From positions 78,925 to 142,924 of the forward strand of contig JACRFK010000003.1 of NCBI GenBank assembly GCA_016217925.1: a stretch of 64,000 bases of DNA. The letters run 5' to 3'. The position numbers and the translations under genes were made by a program. A model generated the notes under the pieces. That model was not told the DNA's origin and did no database searches. It saw nothing but the letters and a program-made list of their open reading frames with translations. Of this stretch, positions 23,155 to 45,884 are shown piece by piece. Source of the DNA: Candidatus Kaiserbacteria bacterium. GTDB lineage: Bacteria; Patescibacteriota; Minisyncoccia; Phycocordibacterales; UBA2100. Positions within the stretch are counted from its first letter, which is position 1. The number at the start of each line of letters is the position of its first letter.

Positions 23155-24255
23155 ATGGAAAAGAGTAAACTAAACAAGCTTTCGCCCGGCTTGAGGAGGC
23201 TCATTGTACCGGACGATACCGCGGCAGCGGGTACCCTGAGTGCGGGTGTAAAGGATAGTCCAATGCCGGTGAGCAAATTTGCGGAGAGGACATTGCTTCA
23301 CTGCAACGGCGGCTCGACTATGCGTGCAGCAGTGTGGCTGAAGAATCATTTGGAGAATGGCGGCAAATTAGTAGTGACGCTTGCGGGTGCCCTAAGCTCA
23401 TTTCAAATCGGCGTGATGTTGGCTGAACTCATAAGAAAGGACAAGGTACATTTGATATCCGCCACTGCCGCCAACCATGAAGAGTCATACTACCGCTATG
23501 TCGCGCACTCACACTACGCAAACATTCCCCGCTATACGGAGCTGACCCCTGAACAAGAGGCTGAGTTGCGTGACGCCGGCCTGCGTAGGATTACGGACAC
23601 GTTTCTACCCGAAGATGAAAGTGTGCGTATCATGGAACCGCATTTGCTCAAGATGTGGAAAGACGCGCAGGACAAAAAGGAAGCATACTTCCCGCATGAA
23701 TACTTCCGAAGATTGTTCGCGGACAAATTAATCGGCCCGGACCCTAAAGCCAACCCGGACGACTGTTGGACGTATGCTGCATTTGAAAAAAATATACCGA
23801 TTGTGACCCCGGGGTTTGAGGATTCTACGATGGGCAACATTTTTGCGGGTTACACCTATGCCGGGCCACATAAGAAAGAGGGAGATGTCTGCCTGGACGG
23901 TGACGTCATGAAAAGCGGGTTGGAATACTTTCATCTCATGTACGACTGGTACATGAAAGAGAGCAAGGACTCTCCCATCGCCTTTCTACAGCTGGGCGGG
24001 GGTATTGCGGCGGATTTTCCCATCTGCGTCGTCCCGTCGCTAAGACACGATTTGAAACCTGGTGGCAAAATTCGGGATTGGGCGGGTTTTATTGAAATCG
24101 GCTCCTCGCCGATGTCGTATGGGTCCTACTCCGGCGCGGGTGGAAAAGAAAAAATCACGTGGGATAAACTTTCCACTGAAAGTTACTACCAAGTTATCCA
24201 GAGCGATGTGACCGTAGCGTTCCCTTGGATAGCGGCCGTCCTCTTGGGCCTATAG
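23155..24255 (+). CDS. Deoxyhypusine synthase-like NAD-dependent aminobutyl transferase
   Basis: Matches the DHS family along its length, including the C-terminal SDVTVAFPWIAAVLLG (comparable to DHS ..DATLVFPLLVA) and the central GGG..ADFP region. Confidence 0.75.
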   Translation: MEKSKLNKLSPGLRRLIVPDDTAAAGTLSAGVKDSPMPVSKFAERTLLHCNGGSTMRAAVWLKNHLENGGKLVVTLAGALSSFQIGVMLAELIRKDKVHLISATAANHEESYYRYVAHSHYANIPRYTELTPEQEAELRDAGLRRITDTFLPEDESVRIMEPHLLKMWKDAQDKKEAYFPHEYFRRLFADKLIGPDPKANPDDCWTYAAFEKNIPIVTPGFEDSTMGNIFAGYTYAGPHKKEGDVCLDGDVMKSGLEYFHLMYDWYMKESKDSPIAFLQLGGGIAADFPICVVPSLRHDLKPGGKIRDWAGFIEIGSSPMSYGSYSGAGGKEKITWDKLSTESYYQVIQSDVTVAFPWIAAVLLGL

Positions 24256-24267
24256 CCGGGAGGGTCC

Positions 24268-24400
24268 TCAAATTTCCTGGGCTTCAGAATCGAATGCGTC
24301 GAAGTCATTGCGCACGATTGCGCGGTCGTACGTAAGGTATATGGAAACGGCGACCGCAATAAAAAGCAGAGCAAGTAAGATTTTTGAACGCTTATCCATA
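24268..24400 (-). CDS. Possible small membrane protein (about 43 aa, MDKRSKILLALLFIAVAVSIYLTY...)
   Basis: Unlisted short ORF with one TM helix, between convergent genes. Weak support. Confidence 0.25.
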
Positions 24401-24453
24401 GGTTGTTACATGTAGTCTATTGATATCGGACCGTTAGTACCGTACATGGTACC

Positions 24454-25371
24454 TCATGAAATGAACAAGAGGTAGGTCCCAATTGCGGTAATGCAGATAG
24501 CAATAATCTTTTGCCATATGTGCTTAACATGTATCTTCTCTGCCGATATTTTCGGGAAGAACAGTGTCAGGAATATACCTAAAGCAAGGACGAAGACCGG
24601 CTGAAAAGAATTGGTAAGAAGTATGAGAGCAATGGGCGAAAGTAAGAATGCGAAGGAAAGTATTACATTCCCCAGTATGTACAGGGACTCGTTTGCGACA
24701 TTGAGCGACAGGATGGCCCCGGAATTACTCCGTAACGCCGTAAGAAAGTGAGTGCGGTAGGAGCGAATAAATAGAAAAATGCAAATGCCTATTAGCGTGA
24801 GCATGAGATGCTCCCAGAACAACGATCGCCACACATTCTCTTCAAGTGCGACCCCCTTGAAGACGGCAGAGCCAAGCGCCCAAAAGAAGGTAGCAGCGAG
24901 CATGTACGCAACAGTTGCCCTACGAAGCTTAAAATTATTTTCTGCATCTATCTCGAAGGAAATGGCCGTCGTTCCAAGAATGATGACCGCCATGGCGATC
25001 AGCTGCATCCGTGTCAGCACTTCACCGAGGAGAAAAAAGCCAAGCACGAGTCCGAATACAGGTGCGAGTTGGAAAAATATGACGACAACTGACGCCTCCT
25101 CGTCTCTTAGAGCAAGCAGATAGAACCACAGCACCAATATGTGTAGTGTACCTACCCCCGCGAGAACGAGGATGCTTGTAGCGTCCATGCGTAACGCTGA
25201 CGGATCCGCAAGATAGAGAAACGGCAGTACGAATACGGAAAGCAGCGAAGAGAAGAGAATGATCACGCCGACACCTCGTCCCCTAAAGTATTTCTCCAAC
25301 AGGATTTTGTCGATATGGTTTGAGAGCGCATACAAGAACGTACCGGTAAGCGCTATAAAGAACCAGCTCAT
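24454..25371 (-). CDS. EamA/DMT family transporter
   Basis: 10 TM helices in two EamA-like halves. Confidence 0.75.
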   Translation of the reverse strand: MSWFFIALTGTFLYALSNHIDKILLEKYFRGRGVGVIILFSSLLSVFVLPFLYLADPSALRMDATSILVLAGVGTLHILVLWFYLLALRDEEASVVVIFFQLAPVFGLVLGFFLLGEVLTRMQLIAMAVIILGTTAISFEIDAENNFKLRRATVAYMLAATFFWALGSAVFKGVALEENVWRSLFWEHLMLTLIGICIFLFIRSYRTHFLTALRSNSGAILSLNVANESLYILGNVILSFAFLLSPIALILLTNSFQPVFVLALGIFLTLFFPKISAEKIHVKHIWQKIIAICITAIGTYLLFIS

Positions 25372-25461: not shown

Positions 25462-25854
25462 CTAATTAATATTGTGGTCAGGATATTTCAATCCGCGTTC
25501 AACAAGGCTCATTTCGACTTCTTCCAACTTGAATTTACGCTTGAGAAAGTCGCTAAAGAAGTTCGCGTCGATCCCATTCTTGCATGTGTAAATGTCCGCC
25601 GTTAGGAATTTACGGCGTGGGAAAGTGTGAATGCTGATGTGACTCTCTGCGATGACAACGAATCCACTCCAGCCACCCGGATCCTTCATATGATTGTCCG
25701 GTGCGCGATATACCTGAGGCTTTCCTAGCTGGTACATTTTCATGAGCTCACACAGCTCATCGAGACAGCCACGCACGATTTTTTTGTCGTCCAAAAGCGT
25801 GGGGCTTCCGCCATATCCGTCAACCATCACGTGTTCCCCGAAATGCATTGCCAT
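25462..25854 (-). CDS. speH: S-adenosylmethionine decarboxylase proenzyme (class 1a, SpeH-type)
   Basis: HVMVDGYGG ... GFVVIAESHISIHTFP (autoprocessing ES site) ... DIYTCK. Confidence 0.8.
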   Translation of the reverse strand: MAMHFGEHVMVDGYGGSPTLLDDKKIVRGCLDELCELMKMYQLGKPQVYRAPDNHMKDPGGWSGFVVIAESHISIHTFPRRKFLTADIYTCKNGIDANFFSDFLKRKFKLEEVEMSLVERGLKYPDHNIN

Positions 25855-25875: not shown

Positions 25876-26367
25876 TTAGCTGCGGACGGCGGCGAGGGTT
25901 ATATATGCGCCTGCAAGCCACCAGAAGCGGTAGGCTTCGCCGAATACGGCCTGTACCTGATCACCGAAATGCCAGAGGGACGTGAGGCCGGGGACTTGGA
26001 GCCATAGCACGATGAGGATCGCCGTCGTAGCCACGCCGGCGAGAAGCGATTGCACGGGCTGTCCCGACGAATCGCTGTAGAAGCCGAGAATGCGATAGGT
26101 CAAAATGTAAGCGAGAACAACAAGCGCCAACAAAATAATTGCCTGGACCATTTGGGTCTGCGCCTTCTCGAGAATGCTACCCAGGAACGCCGCAGATGGC
26201 AGCGCGCTCAAAATAAGGAAGGCCAGCGGTAGCGCAAGAGCGAGCGATACCGCGCGATTTGTCCCGGCACGCAAGCATTCCGCAGCGATGACGACGGCAA
26301 TGAACCCGAGGATTATCCAGTTTGTCGGCCAGTTGGCAAACACGGAAGAAATCGAGGCGACGTTCAT
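25876..26367 (-). CDS. Hypothetical 4-TM membrane protein
   Basis: Hydrophobic 163-aa ORF. Confidence 0.4.
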   Translation of the reverse strand: MNVASISSVFANWPTNWIILGFIAVVIAAECLRAGTNRAVSLALALPLAFLILSALPSAAFLGSILEKAQTQMVQAIILLALVVLAYILTYRILGFYSDSSGQPVQSLLAGVATTAILIVLWLQVPGLTSLWHFGDQVQAVFGEAYRFWWLAGAYITLAAVRS

Positions 26368-26412: not shown

Positions 26413-27516
26413 TTACAATCCTTCTTGTCTCAACTTCTCGATGAGTTCGCGCGCATGCCTCGAAAGCTTTTTTGGGAATTCGATATCCACACGTACCAAT
26501 AAATCGCCGCGGGCGCGACCGTGCGGTACGCCTTTGCCGCGTACCCGAATGACTTCGCCGTGAGCGATGCCCGGCTCTACGGTAAACATTTCGTCGCCGT
26601 CGAGCGTCTGTACACGGTACTCACCTCCGAGAAGTGCGTCGGAAAGTTTAATCGGGAGCGAAGTGACGAGGTTATTCCCCTCGCGTGAGAATTTTGCGTC
26701 GGATTTCACGTGCAATTTCACGTACAGGTCGCCCGGCGTAGCGCCCGGAGCAGCCTCACCTCGTCCCGGCATACGTATCATCTCTCCGTCCTCCACGCCG
26801 GAAGGCACAACGATGTGTATCTCTTCCTCGCGTTTGCGCACGCTTTCGCCACGGCACGCCTCACAGACCGTTTCGGGTATCTGACCTTTTCCGTGGCAGC
26901 GCGAGCACGGACGCGCCGACGTAAACGTCCCGAAAAATGAATTGCGTGACTCGCGAATCTCGCCTTTGCCGTTGCAGTTGGAACACGTGATGAGCTTCGA
27001 GCCTTTTTTTGCGCCGGAGCCGGCACAGGTGTCACATTGGCTCGTCTTGGTGAGCAGCACGCGGCGCTCGGCCCCGAATATTGATTCGCGGAAGGCAAGC
27101 TCTATATCTATTGAAATGTCGCGTCCCCGCCTCGTACGGGCCTGTCCGCCGCCGAATACGTCGCCAAAAATATCGCCCAAATCGAACTCAAATTGCTGCC
27201 CTCCGAAGGAGGGTCCGCCTCCGGCGGAAAAATTGGAGAAATCGAAGCCGCCGAATCCGCCTTGTCCTCCGAAGGAGGATCCACCTCCGGCGGACGGCCC
27301 CCCGCCTCCGGCGAAGGTCTTGCCGTAGGTATCGTATTCAGCGCGCTTCTTTTTATCGGAGAGTACCGAGTACGCCTCGCTCACCTCTTTGAATTTTTTC
27401 TCGTCGCCGCCTTTTTTATCGGGATGCAATTTGTGCGCCAGCTTTCTGAAAGCGGATTTGATTTCTTCTTCCGTCGCCGTCTTCGCGACGCCTAAAATAT
27501 CATAATAGTTTTTCAT
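26413..27516 (-). CDS. dnaJ: Chaperone DnaJ
   Basis: J-domain with HPD (KLHPDKK), a G/F-rich region, and four CxxCxGxG zinc-finger repeats. Confidence 0.9.
27199..27228. repeat. Diverged copy of the 30-bp GGS-encoding double-hairpin element (in the dnaJ G/F region)
   Basis: ccctccgaaggagggtccgcctccggcgga encodes [10 protein letters not shown] on the minus strand. Confidence 0.4.
27265..27294. repeat. Diverged copy of the 30-bp element (in the dnaJ G/F region)
   Basis: tcctccgaaggaggatccacctccggcgga encodes [10 protein letters not shown]. Confidence 0.45.
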
Positions 27517-27644
27517 CCCGCTCCTTCTACACTAGTAAAACCATATTTGCAAAATGAATTTGAAAGGGCGGGATTCATATCGGAGAAGTATTGTACTAAG
27601 GATACGTTCCCAAAGCAAAAGCCCCGCCGAGGCGGGGCTGCTTG

Positions 27645-29543
27645 TCATTCCTTTTTCGGTTCCTCAGGCGGTTTCTGTTCGTCTTTCGGCGGTTCTTGTC
27701 CTCCGGAGGAGGATCCGCCTTCGGCGGACGGGGGGGTTTGCTGATTTTTGCTCATCGCTTCGCCTATCGCACTCATGGCGGTGGAAAGTGCTTCGGCAGC
27801 GGATTTGATTGCCGCTGCGTCAGTACCGGCTCGAGCCGCCTTGGCGGCTTCGATCTTTTCCTGGACGTTCTTCTTGATATCCTCGCTCACCTTATCTCCG
27901 TGCTCGCGGAGTGCTTTTTCGGCTGCGTAGACGATTTGGTCGGCTGCGTTTTGGGCCTCAACCACATCCTTTTTCTGTTTGTCCGCCTCGGCGTTCACCT
28001 CGGCATCTTTACGCATCTTTTCAATATCGGCCTCCGAGAGGCCGGAGCTACCTTCAATGCGAATGGACTGCTCCTTGTTCGTGGACTTGTCTTTGGCCTT
28101 TACGGTAAGTATGCCATTTGCATCAATGTCGAATGAGACCTCCACTTGGGGCATACCGCGCGGCGCCGGCGGGATACCGTCGAGGTTGAAGCGCCCAAGC
28201 GACTTATTGTCGCCCGCCATCGGGCGTTCGCCCTGCACGACGTGAATTTCAACGGACGGTTGATTGTCGCTCGCCGTGGAAAACGTCTGCGAGCGCGAGG
28301 TCGGAATGGTCGTATTGCGTTCGATGAGCTTGGTCGCCACACCACCCATCGTCTCGATGCCGAGCGAAAGCGGAATGACATCAAGGAGGAGCACGTCTTT
28401 GACATCACCCTGCAAAATGCCGCCTTGGATAGCTGCACCGATGGCCACGACTTCGTCGGGATTCACACTCAAGTTCGGTTTTTTGCCGAAGAATTCCTCT
28501 ACAGCCTTCTGCATAGCCGGCATGCGCGTCTGGCCCCCAACGAGAACGACTTCGTTGATATCTCCGACCTTGAAAGGCGATGCTTCGACGGCGCGCTTGG
28601 TGATGGTCATGGCACGGTCTAAAAATTCACGCGTAAGCTCTTCGAGCTTCCCCCTCGTCATCTTGATGAGCAAGTGCTGCGGGCCGGCGTCGGTCGAGGT
28701 GATGAACGGGATGTTTATCTCCGTCTCAAGTGCGGTGGAGAGCTCAATCTTTGCCTTTTCCGCAGCTTCGTCGAGCCGTTGGCGAGCGAGCGGGTCCTTA
28801 CTCACATCAATGCCAGATTCCTTTTTGAACTCATCGGAAATCCAAGTCATTATCTTTTGGTCGATATCCCGCCCGCCCAGGTGTGCGTCACCGTCTGTAG
28901 AGCGCACTTCGATAACGTCGTCACCGACTTCAAGTACCGAGATGTCGAACGTACCGCCGCCGAAATCGAAGACCGCTATTTTTTCGTTCTTCTTTTTGTT
29001 GAATCCGTATGCGAGAGCTGCCGCCGTCGGCTCGTTGATGATGCGCTTCACATCAAGGCCTGCGATTTTGCCTGCGTCCTTCGTCGCCTGACGTTGAGAG
29101 TCGTTGAAGTACGCGGGTACGGTGATGACGGCCTCCGTGATGGTCTCTCCCAGTCGCGCCTCGGCGTCTTGCTTTAGCTTCTGCAGTATCATCGCGGATA
29201 TCTCCTCGGGGCGGTACCATTTATCCGCCATTTTTACTTCAATACCGCCGTTTGCGGACTTTTGCGTTTCAAATGAGACGGCGGCGCGATCCTTTGCGAC
29301 CGCGGGTTCGTCGAACGTGTGGCCGATAAAGCGTTTTATCTGGTATACCGTGTTCTTTGGGTTCGTTACTCCCTGTCGTTTGGCAAGGAGGCCGACAAGT
29401 CGCTCTGACGTTTTACCGACAGCAACGACCGACGGAGTCGTGCGGGCGCCCTCTGCGTTCTCGATTATCTGCGGCTCACCGCCTTTCACCACAGCAATGG
29501 CGGAGTTGGTCGTGCCGAGGTCTATACCTAATATCTTGCTCAT
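27645..29543 (-). CDS. dnaK: Chaperone DnaK (Hsp70)
   Basis: [19 protein letters not shown]...DLGGGTFD... Start set at MSKIL. The C-terminal tail carries the [10 protein letters not shown] insert. Confidence 0.9.
27699..27728. repeat. 30-bp GGATCC-centred double-hairpin element, in-frame in the dnaK 3' end
   Basis: tcctccggaggaggatccgccttcggcgga. The same 30-mer occurs again at 31179. Confidence 0.8.
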
Positions 29544-29556
29544 ATAGTTGCTAGGT

Positions 29557-29585
29557 GTTATATGCTTTGCTAAGCACTTTGTCAA
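29557..29585 (-). promoter_or_regulatory. Candidate sigma70-type promoter for dnaK
   Basis: On the minus strand: TTGACA, a 17-nt spacer, then TATAAC. This sits about 14 nt upstream of the dnaK ATG, so the leader is very short and the call is speculative. Confidence 0.3.
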
Positions 29586-29592
29586 CCCGGCG

Positions 29593-29675
29593 TTAAATTT
29601 TCAATTTGCAATTTACAATTTTGCAAATTTATACATTGTAAATTGATTGGAAATTAAAAATTGAGAATTGAAAAT
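29593..29675. repeat. AT-rich repetitive spacer between grpE and dnaK (paralogous to 34058-34151)
   Basis: Built from repeated TGTAAATTG / AAAATTCAT units, which is striking in a 57 % GC genome. Confidence 0.6.
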
Positions 29676-30218
29676 TCATTTCTTAACAATAACGTGCGCT
29701 GCCCGCAATACCCTGCCGTCCATTTTGTACCCGTAGCGCAATATTCGTGCCACTGTTCCGGATTCGCCCGCCACGTCGTCACGCTCTTCTACAGTTTCGT
29801 GTACCGCATGGTCGACAATTTGGCCGACTTTCCCGAATCGCTCCACGCCATGGCGCGAAAGCGCATCAAGAAGCTGGCTACGTATCTGCTCGATGCCGCT
29901 GCGCCACCCCGCGTCCATGCTCTCCCACGTTGGTGAGCTTGCGGCGATATCAAAACCGTCGAGCGCGGGGATGATATCCGCGATCAGGTCTTCCTTGGCA
30001 CGGGTGCCCAATCGCTCGGCGTTTGCAAGCATTTCTTTGCGTGCGTTCACACTATCGGCCTTGCAACGCTGCCACCCGTCGAGGTACTCCTGGCGCTCTG
30101 CCTTCACCTCCGCGAGTTCGTCCTTAAGTTTTTTGAGCTTTGCCTGTGCGGCGCCGACGTCCCCGAGCTCTTCATCGGGCTCGAAATTCAGTTCTTCATC
30201 CGGAGGGACGTTCTTCAT
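29676..30218 (-). CDS. grpE: Nucleotide exchange factor GrpE
   Basis: Coiled-coil N-terminus. C-terminal GrpE signature HEAVHETVEE...VLRAAHVIV. Confidence 0.85.
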   Translation of the reverse strand: MKNVPPDEELNFEPDEELGDVGAAQAKLKKLKDELAEVKAERQEYLDGWQRCKADSVNARKEMLANAERLGTRAKEDLIADIIPALDGFDIAASSPTWESMDAGWRSGIEQIRSQLLDALSRHGVERFGKVGQIVDHAVHETVEERDDVAGESGTVARILRYGYKMDGRVLRAAHVIVKK

Positions 30219-30412: not shown

Positions 30413-30808
30413 CTAGCGCTTCGACCATTGCGGCGCTCTGCGCGCAGCTTTGAGACCGAACTTCTTGCGTTCTTTTGCACGGGGGTCGCGTTTGAGGAAG
30501 CCTCGGACCTTGAGGTCTTTACGCTGCTCGGGGGTGACTTCTATCATCGCGCGGGAAAGACCGAGGCGTACCGCTTCTGCCTGCGCCTTGAGGCCGCCGC
30601 CCTGTACGTGCGCAGAGACAGCGTACGTCGCCCCCATAAGCTTCAACGGCGAAAATGCCATCTGCACCATGACCTCGAGCGGGAAGTATTCATTCGCAAG
30701 TTTACCGTTCACGGTCATCGAAGAGCTCTTCGCTTCGGTGATGCGCACGCGGGCTGTTGCGGTCTTCCGACGGCCTACTGCTTCTGTGTATCGTAATTCT
30801 TTTGCCAT
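30413..30808 (-). CDS. rpsI: 30S ribosomal protein S9
   Basis: GRRKTATARV...GGGLKAQAEAVRLG...ERKKFGLKAARRAPQWSKR. Confidence 0.9.
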   Translation of the reverse strand: MAKELRYTEAVGRRKTATARVRITEAKSSSMTVNGKLANEYFPLEVMVQMAFSPLKLMGATYAVSAHVQGGGLKAQAEAVRLGLSRAMIEVTPEQRKDLKVRGFLKRDPRAKERKKFGLKAARRAPQWSKR

Positions 30809-30810
30809 AC

Positions 30811-31167
30811 TTATTCGGTAACCGCTAAATTTTTCAGACGGGGCGTATGCATCGTGTTGCGCGGGAGCATCCGTGCGACGGCCCGGCGGAGCGCTTCGGC
30901 GTTGCCTTTGCGTGCGGTGAGCGATGCGAGGCTTTCGCGCTTCAAGCCGCCCGGGTATCCGGAGTAGGTGGTATAGATAGTGCGCGAGCGTTTGCGTTCA
31001 CGGATATAGAGCTTGCTTGCATTGGTGACGGAGACTTTGACGTTCGAATTTTTGTTGGGCGTGTAATCGGGGCGCATCTTGCCCATGAGGGCTTTTGCGG
31101 CCTCGGAGGCGACGCGCCCGAGTGTGCGGCCGGCGGCGTCGATTGTGTATGTGTTTTTTGTCTCCAT
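30811..31167 (-). CDS. rplM: 50S ribosomal protein L13
   Basis: YTIDAAGRTLGRVASEAAKALMGK matches the L13 N-terminus. Operon partner of rpsI. Confidence 0.85.
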   Translation of the reverse strand: METKNTYTIDAAGRTLGRVASEAAKALMGKMRPDYTPNKNSNVKVSVTNASKLYIRERKRSRTIYTTYSGYPGGLKRESLASLTARKGNAEALRRAVARMLPRNTMHTPRLKNLAVTE

Positions 31168-31172
31168 ACTAA

Positions 31173-31559
31173 TTATTTTCCTCCGGAGGAGGATCCGCCT
31201 TCGGCGGAAACGAATTCAATGCGTGCGGCTTCACCCACGCGCTTCCCTACTCTGCCGAGGTTAACGATGCGTGTGTAGCCGCCTGCTCGTTTTGCGTAGC
31301 GCGGGGCGTATACATCGTGAAGCTTTTTCACCACATCATGAGCACCGCCCATGCGCGTTTCGATGACGCGGCGTGACGCGAGTGTGTTCTTCTTGCTCAT
31401 CGAGACCATCCTCTCGACGAACGGGCGGAGTTCTTTTGCCTTTGCGATAGTGGTCGTAATTCCCTCGTGTAGTACGAGCGAACGCGCGAGACTGCGCAGA
31501 AGTGCCGTCCGTTGCCCCCTCTTACGTCCCAATGTTCTGTTCTTCTTGTGATGCTGCAT
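31173..31559 (-). CDS. rplQ: 50S ribosomal protein L17 (with [12 protein letters not shown]-terminal extension)
   Basis: MQHHKKNRTLGRKRGQRTALLRSLARSLVLHEGITTT. The last 11 codons come from the 30-bp element. Confidence 0.85.
   Translation of the reverse strand: MQHHKKNRTLGRKRGQRTALLRSLARSLVLHEGITTTIAKAKELRPFVERMVSMSKKNTLASRRVIETRMGGAHDVVKKLHDVYAPRYAKRAGGYTRIVNLGRVGKRVGEAARIEFVSAEGGSSSGGK
31179..31208. repeat. 30-bp GGATCC-centred double-hairpin element, in-frame at the extreme 3' end of rplQ
   Basis: tcctccggaggaggatccgccttcggcgga, 30/30 identical to the dnaK copy. Confidence 0.8.
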
Positions 31560-31565
31560 ACCAGG

Positions 31566-32543: not shown

Positions 32544-32593
32544 AAAAAAATGATAACGTCAAGCTGCTAGTAAAAATCGCCAACAATTATAAC

Positions 32594-33211: not shown

Positions 33212-33216
33212 ATATA

Positions 33217-33651: not shown

Positions 33652-33676
33652 ACTGGTACAAAAATAAATTTTTTGA

Positions 33677-34265: not shown

Positions 34266-34338
34266 GTTCCTAAATTTGCAAAACGTAACCAGAATCCCGT
34301 CTCCGAACTTCGGAGTGCGCGACTCTACGGACTTCTCG

Positions 34339-36155: not shown

Positions 36156-36204
36156 GTAATTTTCTCGAAATTATGTCGCGACTTCTATATTCTACCTCAC
36201 AAAA

Positions 36205-37362: not shown

Positions 37363-37482
37363 TGAGTAAGTATACCAATCAAAGGGTCAGAAGGTCTGCG
37401 AATTTTGGTGAAGTGTTGAAAAAACAATCACGCCCGCCGGTTTAACCGAGCGGGCGTGGGAGTCTCAGCGGCACGGCATCGC

Positions 37483-37995
37483 TTATTTTTTGTAGTAATC
37501 CGCGTCGTCCATTATGGCTTGCGGCATGACCACCATTTGATGACCGCCCCAATTATGGGGATTATCAATGGTCATAATCATCGCAGGCTCTACCTTGATG
37601 TCGAGTTCAGCAAGTAGCGCCTTCTTCTCGTTATATCGTCCGAAGTCTGGGACGAACAGAGACGTACCAACGGCTACTGCACTGAGCACGCACAAGCTCA
37701 CGACAATCGGCATTTTCGCCGGTTCGGTAAGTAATCCTTGCGCTATGAAAGCCGATGATATAAGCATGGCAGTAGTTACGATTACTACCCATGCCATACC
37801 GTGCTTCCACCAAGGCTTCAGCTCGATTGCTTGCCATCTGCAGTACGCCCGGTCAGGTATTCGTATTACTTTACAAAAGCAACGCCAATCCTCGGGCTCT
37901 CCTCGCCAGAAGACGTATTCCTCACTTCCGAATCGATGAATCCTCCAGGGCAACCTACGTGTCCCCGCTGGAGTCTTTTTCTTCTGTTCGGCCAT
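37483..37995 (-). CDS. Hypothetical membrane protein
   Basis: 170-aa ORF with a Cys/Trp-rich N-terminus and 2-3 TM helices. Confidence 0.35.
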   Translation of the reverse strand: MAEQKKKTPAGTRRLPWRIHRFGSEEYVFWRGEPEDWRCFCKVIRIPDRAYCRWQAIELKPWWKHGMAWVVIVTTAMLISSAFIAQGLLTEPAKMPIVVSLCVLSAVAVGTSLFVPDFGRYNEKKALLAELDIKVEPAMIMTIDNPHNWGGHQMVVMPQAIMDDADYYKK

Positions 37996-38051
37996 GGCCG
38001 ACCCCCATTGGAGCGTGATTGCCCACTGTCGAGCACTATGCGTCAGTAAAA

Positions 38052-40028
38052 TTACACGGTCAACACCGCCTTGATGCGGCGGATGCCTGCCGCGACCGCT
38101 TCCTCTTTCTGAATTTTGAATGTGCCGCCCTCTCCTATCTCACGTGTGTTCCCGACGTGTGGGCCGCCGCAGAATTCTATCGAGAACGCTTTGTCGAATT
38201 GCGGGTCGGTGGCCGTCGCCCCTTTTGGTCCGAGCGAGTACACCGAGACCATGTCGGGATACTTTGCACCGAATTCGTGCTCGGCGCCGAGTTTCTCTGC
38301 CTCCTCTTTGGGCAAGGTCGAGCGTATCATCGGCAGTCCTTCTTGTATTTTTTCGTTGACGATGCGTTCCACCTCCTGTAGCTGTTCGGGTGTCATTTTG
38401 GCGCCGTACGAGAAGTCTATACGTAGACGCTCTTGTGTGATGTTGCTACCGCGCTGTTTTATCGAAGGGCCAAGCACTATTTGCAAGGCCTTGAGGAGCA
38501 GGTGGTGCGCCGTGTGCAGGCGCGTGGTCTTTTCGGACTGGTCGGCGAGTCCCCCTTTAAACTTTTGCTCACTCCCCGCGCGGGAGAGTTCGCGGTGTTT
38601 CTTCATCGCCGCAGCGAACCCGTCCTCATCCACGTCAATACCGCGCTCGTGCGCCAATTCGAGCGTCATCTCAAAGGGAAAACCGTAGGTCGTGAAGAGG
38701 AGAAAGGCATCGTTACTCGCGATGTGGCCGGCCTTTGCCACCTTCTCGAATTCCTTCATGCCGCTTTCGAGGGTGTGTGCGAATTGTTTTTCCTCTTTCC
38801 ATATCTCGCTCGTGATAGTTTCGTACGCCTCTTCGGAGCCGAGCTCGGGGTATGCCTGCTTGTACTTCTCGATGAAAGACACCGCACAGCGCACGAGCAT
38901 GCTGTCCGCGGCCTCACCATTCTGTATTTCGAGTTTCTGCGCGTGTTGCGCGGCACGGCGGATGAGGCGGCGCAATACATATCCGCGGTCGGTGTTGGCC
39001 GGCCGCACACCATCGGCGAGCATGAATGTCGCGGCGCGCATGTGGTCCGCGACGATGCGGTATGAGCGCTGGTACCGCTTGTCCTCGTACTCCTTGCCTG
39101 AGAAATGAATGAGGAGTCCGATGACGTCGGCGAAGACATCAATAGCGAAGACGTCGGGGTTGTCCTGCGCGGCTGCGGCGATGCGTTCGAGCCCGCCGCC
39201 GAAGTCGACATTAGCCTTTGGTAAAAGCTTAAATACTTTCTTTCCGCCGGAGGCGGATCCTCCTTCGGAGGAGATGTACTGCATAAAGACGGAATTACCA
39301 ATCTCGAGGAACCGTCCGCAATCGCAATTGGGGTGGCACTCGGCGCCGAATTGCGGGTCGTGAGGCGTGCCGAAGTCATAAAACACCTCTGAGTCCGGCC
39401 CGCCCGGCTCCCCTGCAGGCATGTTTTCGGGGACTCCCGCGCGGCTCCACCAATTTTTCTTGGCATCGTAGTAGAAGATGCGTCCGCCTTGCATGCCGAG
39501 GCGGTAGCCGTCGGCTTCCGGACCTATTTCAACTATCTTTGCGTCGATTCCTTTGCTCTCAAACAGTGTTTTCCAAATTTCGGCAGACTCAGTATCCTTA
39601 GGGACACCGTTTTTTTCATCGCCGATAAATGCGGTCACATACAAATTCTTCGGGTCGAGACCTATCTCGCTCGTCAAGAATTCAAAGAACCACGGCAGCT
39701 GCTCACGCTTAAAATAATCGCCGAGCGACCAATTGCCGAGCATCTCGAAAAATGTCGTGTGGCGGTTGTCGCCCACTTCTTCGATATCTTCAGCGCGGAA
39801 ACTTTTCTGGCTATTTACCAAACGATTGCCTTTTGGATGCGGCTCGCCGAGAAGATACGGCACGAGCGGCTGCATGCCGCTACCGGTGAAAAGTGTCGTC
39901 GGGTCGTTCTGGGGTACGAGCGGCGCGGAAGGAATTATGGTGTGCCCTCTTGTCTTTCCGCCGGAGGCGGATCCTCCTCTGGAGGAGAAAAATTCCAGAT
40001 ACTTCGTGCGTATCTCGTTGATAGTCAT
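38052..40028 (-). CDS. alaS: Alanyl-tRNA synthetase (short form, catalytic plus editing domains) carrying two 10-aa element insertions
   Basis: N-terminal EIRTKYLEFF....GH..IPSAPLVPQNDPTLLFTGSGM. Editing-site HTAHHLL and CGGPHV motifs. 658 aa. Confidence 0.9.
   Translation of the reverse strand: MTINEIRTKYLEFFSSRGGSASGGKTRGHTIIPSAPLVPQNDPTTLFTGSGMQPLVPYLLGEPHPKGNRLVNSQKSFRAEDIEEVGDNRHTTFFEMLGNWSLGDYFKREQLPWFFEFLTSEIGLDPKNLYVTAFIGDEKNGVPKDTESAEIWKTLFESKGIDAKIVEIGPEADGYRLGMQGGRIFYYDAKKNWWSRAGVPENMPAGEPGGPDSEVFYDFGTPHDPQFGAECHPNCDCGRFLEIGNSVFMQYISSEGGSASGGKKVFKLLPKANVDFGGGLERIAAAAQDNPDVFAIDVFADVIGLLIHFSGKEYEDKRYQRSYRIVADHMRAATFMLADGVRPANTDRGYVLRRLIRRAAQHAQKLEIQNGEAADSMLVRCAVSFIEKYKQAYPELGSEEAYETITSEIWKEEKQFAHTLESGMKEFEKVAKAGHIASNDAFLLFTTYGFPFEMTLELAHERGIDVDEDGFAAAMKKHRELSRAGSEQKFKGGLADQSEKTTRLHTAHHLLLKALQIVLGPSIKQRGSNITQERLRIDFSYGAKMTPEQLQEVERIVNEKIQEGLPMIRSTLPKEEAEKLGAEHEFGAKYPDMVSVYSLGPKGATATDPQFDKAFSIEFCGGPHVGNTREIGEGGTFKIQKEEAVAAGIRRIKAVLTV
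39243..39272. repeat. 30-bp double-hairpin element, in-frame in alaS (encodes [10 protein letters not shown])
   Basis: tccgccggaggcggatcctccttcggagga. This is the opposite orientation to the dnaK and rplQ copies. Confidence 0.8.
39957..39986. repeat. 30-bp double-hairpin element, in-frame in the alaS N-terminus (encodes SSRGGSASGG)
   Basis: tccgccggaggcggatcctcctctggagga. It interrupts the otherwise conserved AlaRS N-terminal block FF..GH. Confidence 0.8.
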
Positions 40029-40113: not shown

Positions 40114-40572
40114 CTATTGCGACCGAGACCTTGGAATTGGAAGGTCGGCCTTGCGACCGTTGATCAGGACATCGTCGGCAGGGAAGAACAGATAAGCCGG
40201 TCTGCGCATCCACGTGAAGTAGCGTGTATTGCCCCAGTCCAAAGTGTTCCAGTCTTCCAACGTGAGGCCGAAACGTTCGTTCGACGACCCTTGGAATGAA
40301 GCCTCGGCACACTTGAAGTAGCCCCACCTGACCGTTCGTTTGCTGGACCCGTCTTTATTGGTCCACACATGGGCCTCGTTCATGTCGAAGACGCAGGGGA
40401 TCCCGCTGTAGAACACGACAGACTTCGGCCATCCCCAATACGCCGTAGCGACAGATCCGAGGATGACTCCGATTACCAAGGCGTACAAAAATGCACTTCG
40501 TTCGCCCAGATCTTTGGCTTTCACCGGCTTCTGGGTAGCCTTCTTGTCTTTTGCAGCCATCGTAGCCCTCAC
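40114..40572 (-). CDS. Hypothetical small membrane protein
   Basis: 152-aa ORF with one TM helix. Confidence 0.35.
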   Translation of the reverse strand: MRATMAAKDKKATQKPVKAKDLGERSAFLYALVIGVILGSVATAYWGWPKSVVFYSGIPCVFDMNEAHVWTNKDGSSKRTVRWGYFKCAEASFQGSSNERFGLTLEDWNTLDWGNTRYFTWMRRPAYLFFPADDVLINGRKADLPIPRSRSQ

Positions 40573-40635
40573 AGTTTGAGGACGCTCAACAGACGTCCAT
40601 GGGTAATATACGCCTTAGCTTTTGCTATATCAACC

Positions 40636-41931
40636 ATGAGGCGATACTATGCGCTGACGATGAAATACGATATCCACACACTTAAAAACGGACTGCGGGT
40701 CGTGCTCGTCCCGATGCCGACTACACAGACGGCCACGGTCGTCGTGATGACGGGCACCGGCTCGCGATATGAAAATGCGCACGAGAACGGCCTCGCACAT
40801 TTCTTGGAGCACATGTTTTTCAAGGGCACGAAGAAGCGTAAGGGCGCCCGCGAAATCAGCGAAGAGCTCGACGGCATCGGTAGCTCCTACAACGCCTTCA
40901 CCGCCAAAGACCGCACCGCCTATTACGCCAAGGTGAGCGCAGGCTACCTCGATACCGCGCTGGATGTGATAAGCGACATCTTCCTCAACTCCACGCTCCC
41001 CGGCAGGGAGATAACCAAAGAGCGCGGGGCCATCATTCAGGAGATTGATATGTACGAAGATATGCCGATGCGCACTATTGATAACGTCTTTGATGCCCTC
41101 ATTTTCGGCGCGGAGCACCCGCTCGGCCGCACGATACTCGGGCCGAAGGAAAATATCCGCACATTTTCGCGTACGGATTTCTCCACATACCTCAAGAGAA
41201 ACTACACCCCGGCCAACACCATCGTCAGCATCGCGGGCTCGTTCTCGACGCCGAAAGTCTTGGCGAAGATAAAGAAGGAATTCGGACGCCTCAAGAAGGC
41301 CGAATCCCCCGCCCTCGTGCCTTTCATCGGCACTCAGGAAGCTCCACGCATCTCTATAAAGGAGAAAAAGACCGACCAGACCCAGCTCATGCTCGGCTTG
41401 CCCGCGTACCCGTACCTGCACAAGGATGAATACGCCCTCGAAGTGCTTGCCTCCCTTTTGGGCGGGGGAATGAGCAGCCGACTTTTCCTCGAGGTGCGCG
41501 AGAAGCGCGGCCTCGCCTATTCCGTACACGCCTGGGCAGAGAAATATCCCGACACCGGCTACTTCGCGGTACAGGCCGGCGTGGAGCACGGAAAGTTGGA
41601 AAAGGCGGTCGAAACGATTCTCGCCGAGTTCCGTAAAGTGAAGAAGACGAAAGTCTCGGCAAAAGAGCTCGCGAAAGTGAAGGCAAACCTCAAAGGCACG
41701 ATGACCCTCGCGCTCGAAACTAGCGGCGCGATAGCCCAGCATGCGGCATCGTCGCTGGTGAGCATCGGAAAGATACGGCAATTGGAGGAGATTATGAAAG
41801 GGGTAGACAAAGTCACCGCCATTGACATCCAGCGCGTAGCAAAAGACATCCTCCAGACAGGAAAACTCAACCTGGCCATCATCGGCCCGCATTTGCAGAA
41901 AGAGCAACTTCTAAAACTCTTGCGCATATAA
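40636..41931 (+). CDS. M16 family zinc peptidase (insulinase/pitrilysin-like)
   Basis: Inverted zinc motif HFLEHMFFKGT (HxxEH) plus the downstream E of M16. Confidence 0.8.
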   Translation: MRRYYALTMKYDIHTLKNGLRVVLVPMPTTQTATVVVMTGTGSRYENAHENGLAHFLEHMFFKGTKKRKGAREISEELDGIGSSYNAFTAKDRTAYYAKVSAGYLDTALDVISDIFLNSTLPGREITKERGAIIQEIDMYEDMPMRTIDNVFDALIFGAEHPLGRTILGPKENIRTFSRTDFSTYLKRNYTPANTIVSIAGSFSTPKVLAKIKKEFGRLKKAESPALVPFIGTQEAPRISIKEKKTDQTQLMLGLPAYPYLHKDEYALEVLASLLGGGMSSRLFLEVREKRGLAYSVHAWAEKYPDTGYFAVQAGVEHGKLEKAVETILAEFRKVKKTKVSAKELAKVKANLKGTMTLALETSGAIAQHAASSLVSIGKIRQLEEIMKGVDKVTAIDIQRVAKDILQTGKLNLAIIGPHLQKEQLLKLLRI

Positions 41932-43020: not shown

Positions 43021-43416
43021 TTATTCTTTCCGCTTCAAGTCCACCTCTGCTTTTTGCATATCAAACTTTACGACAAAGTGCTCGAAGAATCCGGTCTGAC
43101 CAACGACACCGTAATTGGATCCGCCAGCGACAAGCGGAAGGAACCCAGCTTGTATGTTGTACGACCAGCCACCGACCTCAATAGTCACGGGGTGGATAAA
43201 GTACGTCGCTGTTTGCCCGGCGATACCTCCGACAAGCGCCGGAGTTCCTTTTTCGACTTCGATCCCTAAAGCGGATGCAACTTGCTCATCGAAAATGCAA
43301 CTGTCCGCGCCAGAATCTACGAGGACGCTGTAGGAAATTGAACGCCCATCATGCTTGATCTTTATCGGTATGACTGGCCGTGAATGAGCACCATATCGAA
43401 GATACGGGAATTTCAT
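43021..43416 (-). CDS. Retropepsin-like aspartic protease (clan AA)
   Basis: VLVDSGADSCIF contains the D-S/T-G-A active-site motif. 131 aa. Confidence 0.6.
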   Translation of the reverse strand: MKFPYLRYGAHSRPVIPIKIKHDGRSISYSVLVDSGADSCIFDEQVASALGIEVEKGTPALVGGIAGQTATYFIHPVTIEVGGWSYNIQAGFLPLVAGGSNYGVVGQTGFFEHFVVKFDMQKAEVDLKRKE

Positions 43417-43616: not shown

Positions 43617-43633
43617 GCATTATAACAAAGATG

Positions 43634-44317
43634 CTACAGCCAATCAATCGGCTTTTTGTTGTGCTCAACTAGATACGCGTTCGTTTTGCTGAAGGGTTTG
43701 GAGCCGAAGAATTTGGTGGCGGAAAAGGGCGAGGGGTGGGCGGATTCGATTACGAGGTGCTTGGTGCGGTCTATATGTGCGCCTTTCTGCTTGGCGTAGT
43801 TGCCCCAGAGGATGAAAACGAGATGCTCGCGCTCCTCGGAGAGCTTGCGAATGACCGCGTCTGTGAATTCTTCCCAGCCCTTGCCTTGATGCGAGCCGGC
43901 TGTTCTCGCGCGAACAGTTAACGTTGCGTTGAGTAGCAAGACGCCTTGCTTGGCCCAATCCTCTAAACTACCACCCTTCTTCGCCAAGGCTTCGAAGGGC
44001 AAAGAACAATCTGCTGAAAGTTCTTTGAATATATTCTGCAGCGACGGCGGGAGCGGCACGCCCTCACTCACCGCAAAGCACAAGCCGTTGGCTTGCTGCG
44101 GGCCGTGGTACGGGTCCTGGCCGAGGATGACGACTTCCACCTTGTCGAAGGGGCACAAGTCGAAGGCGCGGAAAATATTCTTCGGCGCGGGGTAGACGAT
44201 GGCGTGCTGATACTCCCCCTTCACAAACTCCCGCAGCTTGGTGAAATACCCCTTGCCAAACTCGTCCTGCAGCACCCTCTTCCACGATACCTCGATCTTT
44301 ACGTCTTTTTCTGTCAT
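43634..44317 (-). CDS. ung: Uracil-DNA glycosylase, family 1
   Basis: GQDPYHGPQQANGLCF water-activating motif and HPSPFS C-terminal motif. Start set at MTEKDV. Confidence 0.85.
   Translation of the reverse strand: MTEKDVKIEVSWKRVLQDEFGKGYFTKLREFVKGEYQHAIVYPAPKNIFRAFDLCPFDKVEVVILGQDPYHGPQQANGLCFAVSEGVPLPPSLQNIFKELSADCSLPFEALAKKGGSLEDWAKQGVLLLNATLTVRARTAGSHQGKGWEEFTDAVIRKLSEEREHLVFILWGNYAKQKGAHIDRTKHLVIESAHPSPFSATKFFGSKPFSKTNAYLVEHNKKPIDWL
43652..43708. repeat. Direct repeat copy 2 (the functional 3' end of ung)
   Basis: Overlaps the last ~19 codons of ung. Confidence 0.7.
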
Positions 44318-44456
44318 ATGGGCAGTATACAAAACATCCGGCCTTTGAGGGTTATGCACCCGCGGGTTCCAGCCCCCTCGAAAAGCCTCTCCTGTTGTGG
44401 TATACAAAAGCGGGCGAAGGCCCTTTTTATTATTCTGATTATCTAACAGTGATTGC

Positions 44457-45884
44457 ATGAAAAAAGGAAGATATCCCGTGTACGTAAAGTTTCCCGGCAA
44501 GCTGCTCATCGTAGGCTTCGGCTCCATCGGCCAAGGCGTGCTGCCCTTGATACTCCGCCACATCGGCATCGACCGAAAAAATATTTCCATCATCACCGCC
44601 GACAACTCAGGTAAGGCAATCGCAAAGAAGGAAGGTATTCCGTTCAAGATAGAACCTCTTTTGCAGGATAACTACCAGACCGTGCTCGACCGCCACATCG
44701 GTAAAGGTGACTTTCTTTTGAACCTTTCCGTCGATGTTTCATCTGTCGACCTCATGGCGTACTGCAAGGAAAAAGACATCCTGTACCTCGACACCGTGGT
44801 GGAGCCGTGGCTCGGCGGCTACACTGACCCGAAGCTTTCCATCACCGACCGCTCCAACTACGGCCTGCGCGAGACTTTGCTCGCTGCGAAACGCAAATTC
44901 GGCAAAGGGCCAACGGCGGTCTCGACACACGGCGCCAACCCCGGCATCGTGTCGCACTTCCTCAAGCGCGCACTGATTCAAATCGCGAAGGACACAAAGT
45001 TCAAACACAAAAAGCCCGTCTCGCGTGAGGATTGGGCGAAGCTCATGAAAGACCTCGGTGTGAAAGCGGTGCATGTGGCCGAGTACGATTCGCAAAAATC
45101 CAATAAACCAAAGAAAATCGGACAATTCGAAAATACCTGGTCGGTGCCGGGATTCCACTCCGAAGGCATTCTGCAGCCTTCCGAGATGGGCTGGGGCACC
45201 CACGAAAAGCACTTTCCCAAGAACGGTCATCGGCACAAGGGAGGCTGCGATGCTTCTATCTACCTCGACCAGCCGGGTGCGCGCACTCTTGTGCGCACCT
45301 GGACGCCGGAGCACGGCCATTTCCTCGGCCGCGCGGTCACCCACAACGAGTCCGTATCAATCGCCGACTACTACACGGTAAAAAAGGGTAAAAAGGCCGT
45401 GTATCGACCGACCGTGCACTACGCCTATCGTTGCTGCGATGTGGCGATACTCTCTATCGAGGAATGTTTCGGGCGCAACTCCGTCCTGCAGAACGAGTGG
45501 CGCATTCTCATGGACGATATCGTCTCCGGCATGGATGAGCTTGGCGTGCTTCTCATGGGTCACAAGAAAAATGCGTATTGGTATGGCTCGCAGCTCACAA
45601 TGGAGGAGACGCGCGGACTCGCCCCGTATCAGAATGCTACAGGTCTACAGGTGACCGTCGGCGTATTGGGCGGCATGATATGGGCGATAGAAAACCCGCG
45701 AGAAGGCATCGTCGAAGCCGACGAAATGGACTACGAGCGCGTCATGGAAATTATCGAGCCGTATCTTGGCACGATGAAAGGCGCCTATACCGATTGGACG
45801 CCGCTCGAAGGGCGCACAAGCACATTCGAGCAGGATGTCGACAAGTCCGACCCGTGGCAATTCAAAAACATCTTGTTCTCGTAG
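44457..45884 (+). CDS. hss: Homospermidine synthase (bacterial NAD-dependent type)
   Basis: 475 aa. Rossmann N-terminus LLIVGFGSIGQGVLPLILRH, matching the bacterial HSS/CANSDH family. Confidence 0.75.
   Translation: MKKGRYPVYVKFPGKLLIVGFGSIGQGVLPLILRHIGIDRKNISIITADNSGKAIAKKEGIPFKIEPLLQDNYQTVLDRHIGKGDFLLNLSVDVSSVDLMAYCKEKDILYLDTVVEPWLGGYTDPKLSITDRSNYGLRETLLAAKRKFGKGPTAVSTHGANPGIVSHFLKRALIQIAKDTKFKHKKPVSREDWAKLMKDLGVKAVHVAEYDSQKSNKPKKIGQFENTWSVPGFHSEGILQPSEMGWGTHEKHFPKNGHRHKGGCDASIYLDQPGARTLVRTWTPEHGHFLGRAVTHNESVSIADYYTVKKGKKAVYRPTVHYAYRCCDVAILSIEECFGRNSVLQNEWRILMDDIVSGMDELGVLLMGHKKNAYWYGSQLTMEETRGLAPYQNATGLQVTVGVLGGMIWAIENPREGIVEADEMDYERVMEIIEPYLGTMKGAYTDWTPLEGRTSTFEQDVDKSDPWQFKNILFS

Follow-up and report, generated by a model that had tools for sequence, protein, structure and literature searches.

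Gene content of the locus

We examined a 64-kb stretch of one contig of Candidatus Kaiserbacteria, a groundwater bacterium (the window), in which an earlier note had described an unusual set of polyamine genes in a small genome: genes for a deoxyhypusine synthase (DHS)-like protein, a class-1a S-adenosylmethionine decarboxylase (AdoMetDC), a bacterial homospermidine synthase (HSS), and a glutathionylspermidine-synthetase (GspS)-like ATP-grasp ligase. All four open reading frames (ORFs) were found in the ORF listing of the window where that note had placed them, and the mention of a small genome was right, the host belonging to the candidate phyla radiation (CPR)/Patescibacteria lineage, whose members have a minimal metabolism. 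The DHS-like protein and the 417-amino-acid protein matched proteins of a Candidatus Kaiserbacteria MAG with 100% identity, on a contig of 376,200 bp. The gene map was based on the ORF listing and on Pfam and NCBIfam profile scans, and loci labelled L with a number are related loci used as comparators. The genes at the center of this analysis are as follows.

19473-20726, minus strand: 417-amino-acid (aa) ATP-grasp ligase, a predicted carboxylate-amine ligase (glutathione-synthetase/glutathionylspermidine-synthetase fold)
20831-21283, minus strand: small HAD hydrolase (Pfam HAD/Hydrolase_like)
21398-23032, minus strand: sensor-kinase-like protein, 544 aa (Pfam HATPase_c, 97 bits)
23155-24255, plus strand: DHS-like protein, 366 aa (Pfam DS, PF01916)
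24454-25371, minus strand: EamA-family transporter (Pfam EamA)
25462-25854, minus strand: SpeD homolog, 130 aa (Pfam AdoMet_dc)
25876-26367, minus strand: small multi-pass membrane protein (hydrophobic sequence; no Pfam or NCBIfam match)
44457-45884, plus strand: HSS, 475 aa

The span from 23155 to 45884 is not a cluster: housekeeping operons separate the HSS gene from the pair formed by the DHS-like (DS-like) gene and the SpeD homolog. Within this pair, a single gene, the EamA gene at 24454-25371, lies between the two members.

Homospermidine synthase

The protein encoded at 44457-45884 matched the HSS of Blastochloris viridis (4PLP) over its full length with 560 bits (E 4e-167), and also matched the L. 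pneumophila (2PH5) and P. aeruginosa (6Y87) structures. In an indexed alignment to 4PLP (chain index = residue number + 2), it kept Asp94, Glu117, Tyr123, Asn162, Glu210, Trp229, Glu237, His296, Glu298, and Asp361, which are catalytic or substrate-guiding residues according to PMC4725965, Asp94 and Glu117 forming the ionic slide. The window protein is a full-length ortholog of the B. viridis enzyme (4PLP/4TVB) in which every catalytic and ionic-slide residue is the same, and the canonical bacterial HSS named in the earlier note was thus confirmed. Homology and the fully conserved active site mark it as an ordinary, putrescine-dependent HSS, which is presumably active.

The gene is solitary. 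It lies 19 kb from the DS/SpeD pair, is divergent from a uracil-DNA glycosylase (UDG) gene, and has no adjacent decarboxylase gene; no SpeD homolog adjoins it in the window. The protein itself shows nothing remarkable; what is unusual is that it shares its genome with a SpeY-like gene and that, unlike the Candidatus Kaiserbacteria example in PMC10407285, it lacks an adjacent ornithine decarboxylase (ODC) or SpeDC. A 117-aa ORF upstream of hss, considered as a hidden SpeDC, was antisense to an over-extended UDG ORF and lacked a SpeD motif. When metagenomes were searched with the window HSS, mostly high-GC, non-CPR loci with SpeA nearby and no DS-like or SpeD neighbour were returned, a result that is uninformative about the context of HSS in CPR bacteria.

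Family placement and conservation of the DHS-like protein

The description of the product of 23155-24255 as DHS-like held at the level of the Pfam family, with the DS domain (PF01916) recovered at 102 bits (E 5e-29, residues 53-361), but not at the level of the curated equivalogs, all of which scored below their cut-offs. On the DHS models TIGR00321, NF002294, NF002006, NF003052, and NF002630, the protein reached 53-66 bits against cut-offs of 304-434. Its best matches in the PDB scored 22-37 bits as a single sequence and 63-84 bits as a clade profile.

Its homologs are numerous and close. More than 6,200 database matches were obtained, the best 120 of which were 79-87% identical and labelled Kaiserbacteria, Paceibacterota, Roizmanbacteria, and Doudnabacteria. 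The gene was found in 281 GTDB species representatives; the best 80 of the 281 were 76-86% identical and bore the labels Parcubacteria, Nomura-, Doudna-, Uhr-, and Magasanikbacteria, Peregrini-/Peribacteria, and Gracilibacteria, some of which are probably wrong. In a 50%-identity library, identity dropped to 64%, 50%, and then ≤44% for the full-length DS representatives that came next, and nearly the whole CPR DS-like family falls into one to three 50%-identity clusters. A CPR-type DS gene (80-84% identical) also occurred in nine contigs with non-CPR labels (L010, L013, L014, L016, L027, L034, L038, L057, and L084), namely Gammaproteobacteria, Methanosarcinales, Nanoarchaeota, Woesearchaeota, Bdellovibrionota, and Deltaproteobacteria; these labels are probably binning or labelling errors, the other explanation being real transfer to DPANN. 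A phage search with the DHS-like protein gave no match, and a plasmid search gave only cyanobacterial SpeY at 22% identity.

The DS-like clade is far more conserved than its partner enzymes, which evolve normally. Across the same genome pairs, the median identity was 81-83% for the DS-like proteins, compared with 79% for RpoD, 59% for the N-carbamoylputrescine amidase homolog, 54% for DnaG, 53% for the pyridoxal phosphate (PLP)-dependent decarboxylase, 51% for the agmatine deiminase homolog, and 42% for the agmatinase homolog. The identity of the DS-like proteins correlated with that of RpoD and DnaG (rho about 0.6), which argues that the gene was inherited vertically, under very strong constraint, and did not spread recently. 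At least 98% invariance was seen in 186 of the 366 alignment columns (83 sequences from 83 species). The conservation of the clade is overestimated, in that the loci (the 80 best of 281) had been found via exact 8-residue peptides of the query, which favours conserved copies. Very high sequence conservation is likewise typical of eukaryotic DHS.

Active site of the DHS-like protein

Active-site residues were compared by aligning the clade profile to human DHS (1DHS) and by a MAFFT alignment with a bona fide SpeY, the Trichormus variabilis plasmid A protein (592 bits on NF002699). The catalytic Lys329 of human DHS corresponds to Lys338 (in ITWDKL), a Lys that is invariant in the clade and in SpeY, and human Glu323 and Trp327 are kept as Glu332 and Trp336. 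The window protein shares its family and the lysine-imine catalytic apparatus with eukaryotic and archaeal DHS (EC 2.5.1.46), whereas His288, Asp243, Asp313, and Asp316 of DHS are all replaced. With SpeY it shares the DHS fold, the catalytic Lys, the Glu323 and Trp327 equivalents, and non-acidic residues at the Asp243 and Asp316 positions, which are Asn228 and Tyr325 in the window protein and Phe and Leu in Trichormus SpeY; in Thermus CdmS/SpeY, the corresponding Phe204 and Leu286 are reported as the changes that chiefly set its pocket apart from that of human DHS (PMC10981699). The DS-like clade has thus, like SpeY, lost the spermidine-binding acids, and its active site resembles that of SpeY in this respect. 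The window protein further differs from SpeY in an N-terminal extension of roughly 35 aa. No eIF5A/aIF5A-type substrate is known from bacteria, and no candidate for one was found in the 64-kb window.

Neighbourhoods of the DS-like gene in related loci

ORFs were called in 86 related loci and clustered, and the recurrent families were annotated. A DS-like gene was callable in 84 loci, mostly GTDB species representatives with a few near-duplicate contigs, and its neighbourhood was taken as a radius of 10 kb. An agmatine deiminase homolog (280 bits on TIGR03380) was present in 33 of the 84 loci, an N-carbamoylputrescine amidase homolog in 27, PLP decarboxylases of one family in 26, and an agmatinase-family protein (204 bits on TIGR01230, cut-off 174) in 17. 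The representative PLP decarboxylase (L007, 467 aa) matched SpeA best, with 222 bits over its N-terminal part only, and is as short as the "ancestral AR-fold ADC"; the L017 member of the family is LysA-like. The SpeD homolog (7/84), EamA (6/84), and rpoD-dnaG (16/84) were found less often. Altogether, at least one agmatine-pathway gene, i.e., a SpeA-like arginine decarboxylase (ADC) or other PLP decarboxylase, an agmatinase, or a deiminase or amidase homolog, stood beside the DS-like gene in 53 of the 84 loci, and 25 loci had no polyamine gene nearby.

In the pathway reported by Li et al. (2026; PMC13625781), ADC produces agmatine, two molecules of which are joined by SpeY (diagmatine synthase) into N1,N9-bis(guanidino)homospermidine; homospermidine is then released from this product by a specific ureohydrolase (DUH), or by an iminohydrolase (DIH) and an amidase (NCHAH). 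Clusters of speDA and speY have also been described (PMC10407285, PMC13625781). The neighbourhoods of the DS-like clade correspond to two modules of PMC13625781, SpeY+DUH and SpeY+DIH+NCHAH: genes of the clade cluster with ADC and either an agmatinase homolog or homologs of agmatine iminohydrolase (AIH) and N-carbamoylputrescine amidohydrolase (NCPAH), and are also paired or fused with SpeD-type decarboxylases. Judged by genomic context, the DS-like clade is most readily taken for the CPR form of SpeY.

Fusions between AdoMet_dc and DS domains (public proteins P0261 and P0293) belong to the wider DS clade, and P0260, which has a transit-peptide-like N-terminus, fuses AdoMet_dc, an NNMT/PNMT-type methyltransferase, and DS; the DS parts of all three were 35-44% identical to the window protein. 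Such fusions provide a Rosetta-stone link between the SpeD and DS families. In L091 (6001-9262), the genes that come after a CPR SpeD homolog encode an NNMT-like methyltransferase and the sensor kinase. The fusions and the L091 order suggest N-methylated polyamine products in some lineages.

Among the decarboxylase types, only the SpeD homolog adjoins the DS-like gene of the window. SpeD homologs were paired with the DS-like gene in L001/L002/L023, L009, L013, and L017, and L009 contained DS, SpeD, and HSS genes within 10 kb. In L020, L025, L027, L030, and L047, the distance between an EamA homolog and the DS-like gene was no more than about 1.2 kb. A radical-SAM protein (431-448 aa), absent from the window, was seen a few kilobases from the DS-SpeD pair in Kaiserbacteria-type loci, L009 (12026-13372) and L001 (2368-3663).

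The SpeD homolog

The product of 25462-25854 matched Pfam AdoMet_dc with 92.5 bits. The earlier note had called it a class-1a AdoMetDC, which needs correction because the protein is of the small B. subtilis/T. maritima type, class 1b in the nomenclature of PMC10407285. The same paper reported that class 1b SpeD homologs repeatedly became arginine (SpeDA) or ornithine (SpeDC) decarboxylases, one example being a Candidatus Kaiserbacteria SpeDC clustered with hss. When the clusters of ten SpeD homologs sourced from NCBI were checked for this biochemically validated SpeDC (OGG79367), it was not found.

The window protein retains the self-processing Ser and the catalytic His and Cys, in AESH..IHT...YTC, which align to T. 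maritima Ser63, His68, and Cys83, and 120 of 120 homologs in its CPR clade share the invariant pattern DPGGWSG..AESHISIHTFP[KR]RRF..DVYTC[QK]NG. Taking HTWPE and FTCG as the defining motifs, as inferred from four bona fide sequences, these are replaced in the clade by invariant HTFP[KR]R and YTC[QK]N, and the Glu of WPE is Lys or Arg in 120/120 members, an acidic to basic change that points to an altered, re-charged substrate pocket. None of the four SpeDC-diagnostic residues (Gln, Thr, Phe, and Tyr), whose positions were deduced from the ODC (SpeD2) halves of fusion proteins in Fig. S5 of PMC10407285, is present; Val, Glu, Thr, and Thr occur instead. The window protein shares with SpeDA and SpeDC the small size of a pyruvoyl proenzyme, the conserved Ser, His, and Cys, the lack of a visible SpeE partner, and the association with a DHS homolog and, at a greater distance, hss; the FP[KR]RRF and YTC[QK]NG signature is, in contrast, specific to its clade. 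No speE gene was found in the 64-kb window or beside the SpeD homologs of L001, L009, L017, and L090-L092.

A SpeA-like ADC and a SpeD homolog never stood together beside the DS-like gene in the 84 loci, and the sole PLP decarboxylase found alongside a SpeD homolog was the LysA-like protein of L017. We predict that the SpeD homolog is an amino-acid decarboxylase, probably of arginine, mainly because it appears as a non-orthologous displacement at a syntenic decarboxylase slot (see below); that it works as an AdoMetDC together with a spermidine synthase is improbable. Neofunctionalised SpeD homologs have known reservoirs in CPR and DPANN. Small membrane proteins that are not homologous to one another lay directly upstream of the SpeD homologs in L001, L017, and L090-L092.

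A conserved block including the kinase and the ATP-grasp ligase

The window is collinear with L094, L087, L088, L089, and L096, in the common order DnaK-DnaJ-[X]-kinase-HAD-ligase-TrpRS-AspRS-ScpA. Slot X is occupied in the window by the membrane protein, the SpeD homolog, and EamA, with the DS-like gene on the other strand, and in L094 by EamA and a PLP-dependent Orn/DAP/Arg-type decarboxylase. In L089, a SpeA-like ADC lies directly upstream of the ligase and a pyruvoyl arginine decarboxylase, which passes TIGR00286, lies two genes downstream. The EamA of the window is 66% identical to that of the ligase block of L087.

The sensor-kinase-like protein, whose only Pfam domain is a C-terminal HATPase_c, is divergently adjacent to the DHS-like gene. 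Its homologs (36-60% identity) adjoin SpeD homologs in L090 and L091 and the DS-like gene in L009, L017, and L023. A protein with LPG_synthase_C (aminoacyl-phosphatidylglycerol synthase-like) was also observed beside the SpeD homolog, the kinase, or the ligase block in L090 (5351-10771), L087 (1750-2688), and L088 (867-1775), the L090 gene adjoining a class I LysRS; this recurrence hints at an envelope-modification theme.

The 417-aa protein at 19473-20726 had no sequence match in Pfam (including GSP_synth and GSH_synth_ATP), NCBIfam, or the PDB, and only 14 homologs, all from CPR bacteria, were found in the database search. An AlphaFold model built with these homologs (pLDDT 89.6, pTM 0.89) predicted the three-domain ATP-grasp fold of glutathione synthetase (GSS) and GspS, which is the fold of the polyamine-amide ligases GspS, YgiC, YjfC, and TryS. 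The resemblance to GSP synthetases claimed in the earlier note therefore stands for the modelled fold, but not for membership of a sequence profile. Invariant in the family are K112-x-D114, E127-x-D129..N132, and an SSGxKG loop, which resemble the [R]xD...ExN and P-loop elements of Cp1B (PMC12568646), a paper in which YgiC and YjfC are described, with reference to Pederick et al. (2023), as peptide-spermidine ligases. The window protein is only 10-16% identical to GspS, YgiC, YjfC, trypanothione synthetase, and eukaryotic-type glutathione synthetase/Cp1B, and it has no amidase domain. The HAD gene is its constant partner: a HAD protein of 150-154 aa (63-87% identity) is encoded directly upstream of the ligase homolog in L087, L088, L094, and L096. 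The ligase homolog of L089 is flanked by two arginine decarboxylases, and a link between the ligase and decarboxylase-derived amines is plausible. A 418-aa ORF in L002 and a 416-aa ORF in L009, considered as ligase homologs, were unrelated.

The remaining mapped features of the window are as follows.

11822-14884, minus strand: ScpA and AspRS-type and TrpRS-type synthetases
14984-15727, plus strand: TauE
15743-17107, plus strand: P-loop protein, 454 aa
17110-18249, minus strand: phosphonopyruvate decarboxylase (TIGR03297, 455 bits)
18236-19165, minus strand: phosphoenolpyruvate (PEP) mutase (TIGR02320, 371 bits)
26413-30218, minus strand: dnaJ, dnaK, grpE
30413-40028, minus strand: rpsI, rplM, rplQ, rpoA, rpsD, rpsK, rpsM, two unknown ORFs, alaS
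40369-41931, plus strand: M16 peptidase
43021-43416: retropepsin-like aspartyl protease, 131 aa (Pfam Asp_protease_2), between small unannotated ORFs and UDG
about 43634-44317, minus strand: UDG

ORFs of 490, 385, 473, 398, and 185 aa without a Pfam family were also seen at 34683-37362, 51884-53305, and 58631-60386.

The stretch at 14984-19165 looks like a small phosphonate module of the 2-aminoethylphosphonate (2-AEP) type, TauE-type exporter included, and no aminotransferase was seen near the phosphonate genes. The earlier note had speculated on a polyamine-phosphonate link from the proximity of these genes to the ligase. However, PEP mutase and phosphonopyruvate decarboxylase are not beside the ligase in six relatives (L087, L088, L089, L094, L095, and L096), and the phosphonate genes, the P-loop protein, and TauE form a lineage-specific insertion between the ligase and TrpRS-AspRS-ScpA. 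The ligase-TrpRS synteny that the insertion interrupts is seen in L094 and L087; in L094, where TrpRS-AspRS-ScpA directly follows the ligase, this gap is absent. The link is unsupported because PEP mutase never adjoins the ligase elsewhere and the gap is missing in L094, and this speculation can be removed.

Proposed functions and alternative explanations

Our favoured reading, to which we assign a probability of roughly 55%, is that the window contains two separate things, a stand-alone HSS and a conserved Parcubacterial minus-strand block around a SpeY-like DHS-family gene, working as follows. HSS would make sym-homospermidine from two putrescines with tightly bound NAD+. The SpeD homolog would cleave itself at its conserved Glu-Ser bond, giving a pyruvoyl enzyme that would act as a decarboxylase of a basic amino acid, which is most likely arginine, with agmatine as the product. 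Using NAD+, the DHS-family enzyme would then oxidise agmatine at its primary amine, hold the 4-guanidinobutyl group in an imine with Lys338, and hand it on to a second agmatine, giving N1,N9-bis(guanidino)homospermidine, which in other CPR genomes would be trimmed to homospermidine by the adjacent agmatinase-type enzyme or the deiminase and amidase pair. The ligase of the GspS/YgiC fold would use ATP to couple one of these amines to a carboxylate, and a substrate or product would be transported by EamA. The substrates, the products, and the role of the ligase are those that the genomic context suggests, placed on the families, folds, and active-site residues compared above.

The genome does encode two different NAD-dependent enzymes of the homospermidine type, as the earlier note had pointed out, namely a canonical HSS and an unrelated DHS-family protein. 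Polyamine chemistry in this genome is likely, and of the non-standard chemistry that the same note had envisaged, a homospermidine-type product and possibly an amine conjugate are reasonable; the two enzymes nevertheless map onto described bacterial homospermidine routes, from putrescine via HSS and from agmatine via SpeY (PMC13625781), and are not obviously new chemistry.

Several observations weigh against the SpeY-like interpretation. The DHS-like protein scored 53-66 bits on all seven NCBIfam DHS/SpeY equivalogs (cut-offs 300-500), including 60.4 and 60.7 bits on the SpeY models NF002699 and NF001980 (cut-offs 500 and 450), and at about 21-22% identity to both DHS and SpeY (about 21% to SpeY) it forms a third, equally distant branch. 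Its pocket differs from that of SpeY: besides Asn and Tyr in place of Phe and Leu at positions 243 and 316, it has Tyr at human Asp313, which is Asp in both DHS and Trichormus SpeY, and at human His288 an Asp287 that is invariant in the clade, where Trichormus SpeY has Asn and archaeal and eukaryotic DHS have His. No agmatinase, AIH, NCPAH, or PLP-ADC was found in the 64-kb window, so that a SpeY route here would lack its trimming step; this absence of a nearby trimming hydrolase and the coexistence with HSS set the window gene apart from SpeY systems. In PMC13625781, the HSS and SpeY routes are argued to be mutually exclusive, and yet HSS and a SpeY-like gene coexist in the window genome and in L009. 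Physical coupling is weak, with the DS-like gene on the strand opposite to its neighbours, and SpeD-kinase pairs occur without a nearby DS-like gene, so that history may explain part of the adjacency of DS and SpeD. Nor does a purely metabolic role explain why the DS-like clade is so extremely conserved. As for the SpeD homolog, it marginally passed TIGR03330, the B. subtilis-type AdoMetDC model (77.4 against a cut-off of 75.65), and its highest scores were against bona fide AdoMetDCs, with 46 bits against that of A. aeolicus and 39-40 bits against T. maritima and Omnitrophica SpeD1, compared with only 16-20 bits against fusion SpeD domains and SpeDC. It also keeps the Pro of HTxP (position inferred), which, according to PMC10407285, distinguishes AdoMetDC from ADC and which SpeDAs tend to lose.

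The scores of the SpeD homolog and its retained ESH, His, Cys, and HTxP proline are what would be expected if it were a true AdoMetDC that supplied an unrecognised aminopropyltransferase, with the DHS-like enzyme taking the aminobutyl group from the resulting spermidine to form homospermidine, as in eukaryotic DHS and plant HSS. The NNMT/PNMT-type methyltransferase-fold gene that is beside or fused with SpeD and DS in some relatives could in principle be that transferase. However, the 64 kb contain neither speE nor an NNMT-like gene, the DHS-like enzyme has neither of the spermidine-binding residues of DHS (Asp243 and Asp316), a basic residue takes the place of the Glu of WPE in all 120 members of the SpeD clade, amino-acid decarboxylases fill the syntenic slot in relatives, and HSS would be redundant; we consider this classical route unlikely. 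A somewhat less improbable view, though still a doubtful one, is that there is no functional unit and that the four genes, for HSS, the DHS-like protein, the SpeD homolog, and the ligase, are independent of one another and happen to share a 27-kb stretch of a small, gene-dense genome, with HSS and the DS-like enzyme as redundant or alternative routes acquired separately. The distance of HSS behind 19 kb of housekeeping operons, the opposite strand of the DS-like gene, the occurrence elsewhere of both SpeD-kinase and HAD-ligase pairs without a DS-like gene, and the metagenomic HSS loci that lack DS-like and SpeD neighbours all fit this view, but it leaves unexplained the DS-SpeD adjacency in at least five distinct genomes, the trio in L009, the SpeD-DS fusions, and the collinearity of the decarboxylase, EamA, kinase, HAD, and ligase block in several genomes.

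The extreme conservation of the DS-like clade and the coexistence with HSS would both be explained if the DHS-like enzyme modified a protein or other macromolecule in a hypusine-like manner, for example a component of translation or the envelope, transferring an aminobutyl or guanidinobutyl group from agmatine, putrescine, or homospermidine made by HSS. The clade is above DnaG and at least equal to RpoD in conservation across the same genome pairs, half of its columns (186/366) are nearly invariant, its identity tracks that of the housekeeping genes, the catalytic Lys is retained, 25 of the 84 loci have no polyamine gene nearby, and HSS co-occurs in both the window genome and L009. However, the conservation is inflated by the choice of the best 80 of 281 loci via exact query peptides, the genomic context is that of the metabolic SpeY pathway, and no acceptor candidate emerged: the small ORFs adjoining DS and SpeD, considered as protein substrates, are unrelated membrane proteins, and the EF-P of a Peregrinibacteria locus (L044, 969-1526), encoded at a distance of 10 kb from the DS-like gene, contains the loop NRKQQRKP, with Gln at the position of E. 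coli Lys34 and thus no Lys or Arg at the canonical tip position, which, coming from one CPR EF-P, is weak evidence against this acceptor. We regard such a modifying enzyme as quite improbable, and the same holds for a weaker variant in which the ligase makes a Parcubacteria-specific agmatine- or homospermidine-amide conjugate.

Implications

Under the favoured combination of a stand-alone HSS and a SpeY-like block, two puzzles stand out: why HSS and a SpeY-like gene coexist, and why the DS-like clade is so extremely conserved. Because the window genome and L009 carry both enzyme types, either the CPR enzyme differs from SpeY in function or the exclusivity rule of PMC13625781 has exceptions. 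For polyamine biochemistry, the locus also draws attention to a CPR-specific SpeD clade with a seemingly re-charged pocket and to an orphan ligase family of predicted GspS fold that is invisible to sequence profiles. A DHS-family gene that is almost invariant across CPR lineages in which DnaG is only about 54% identical suggests that this enzyme is important for CPR biology.

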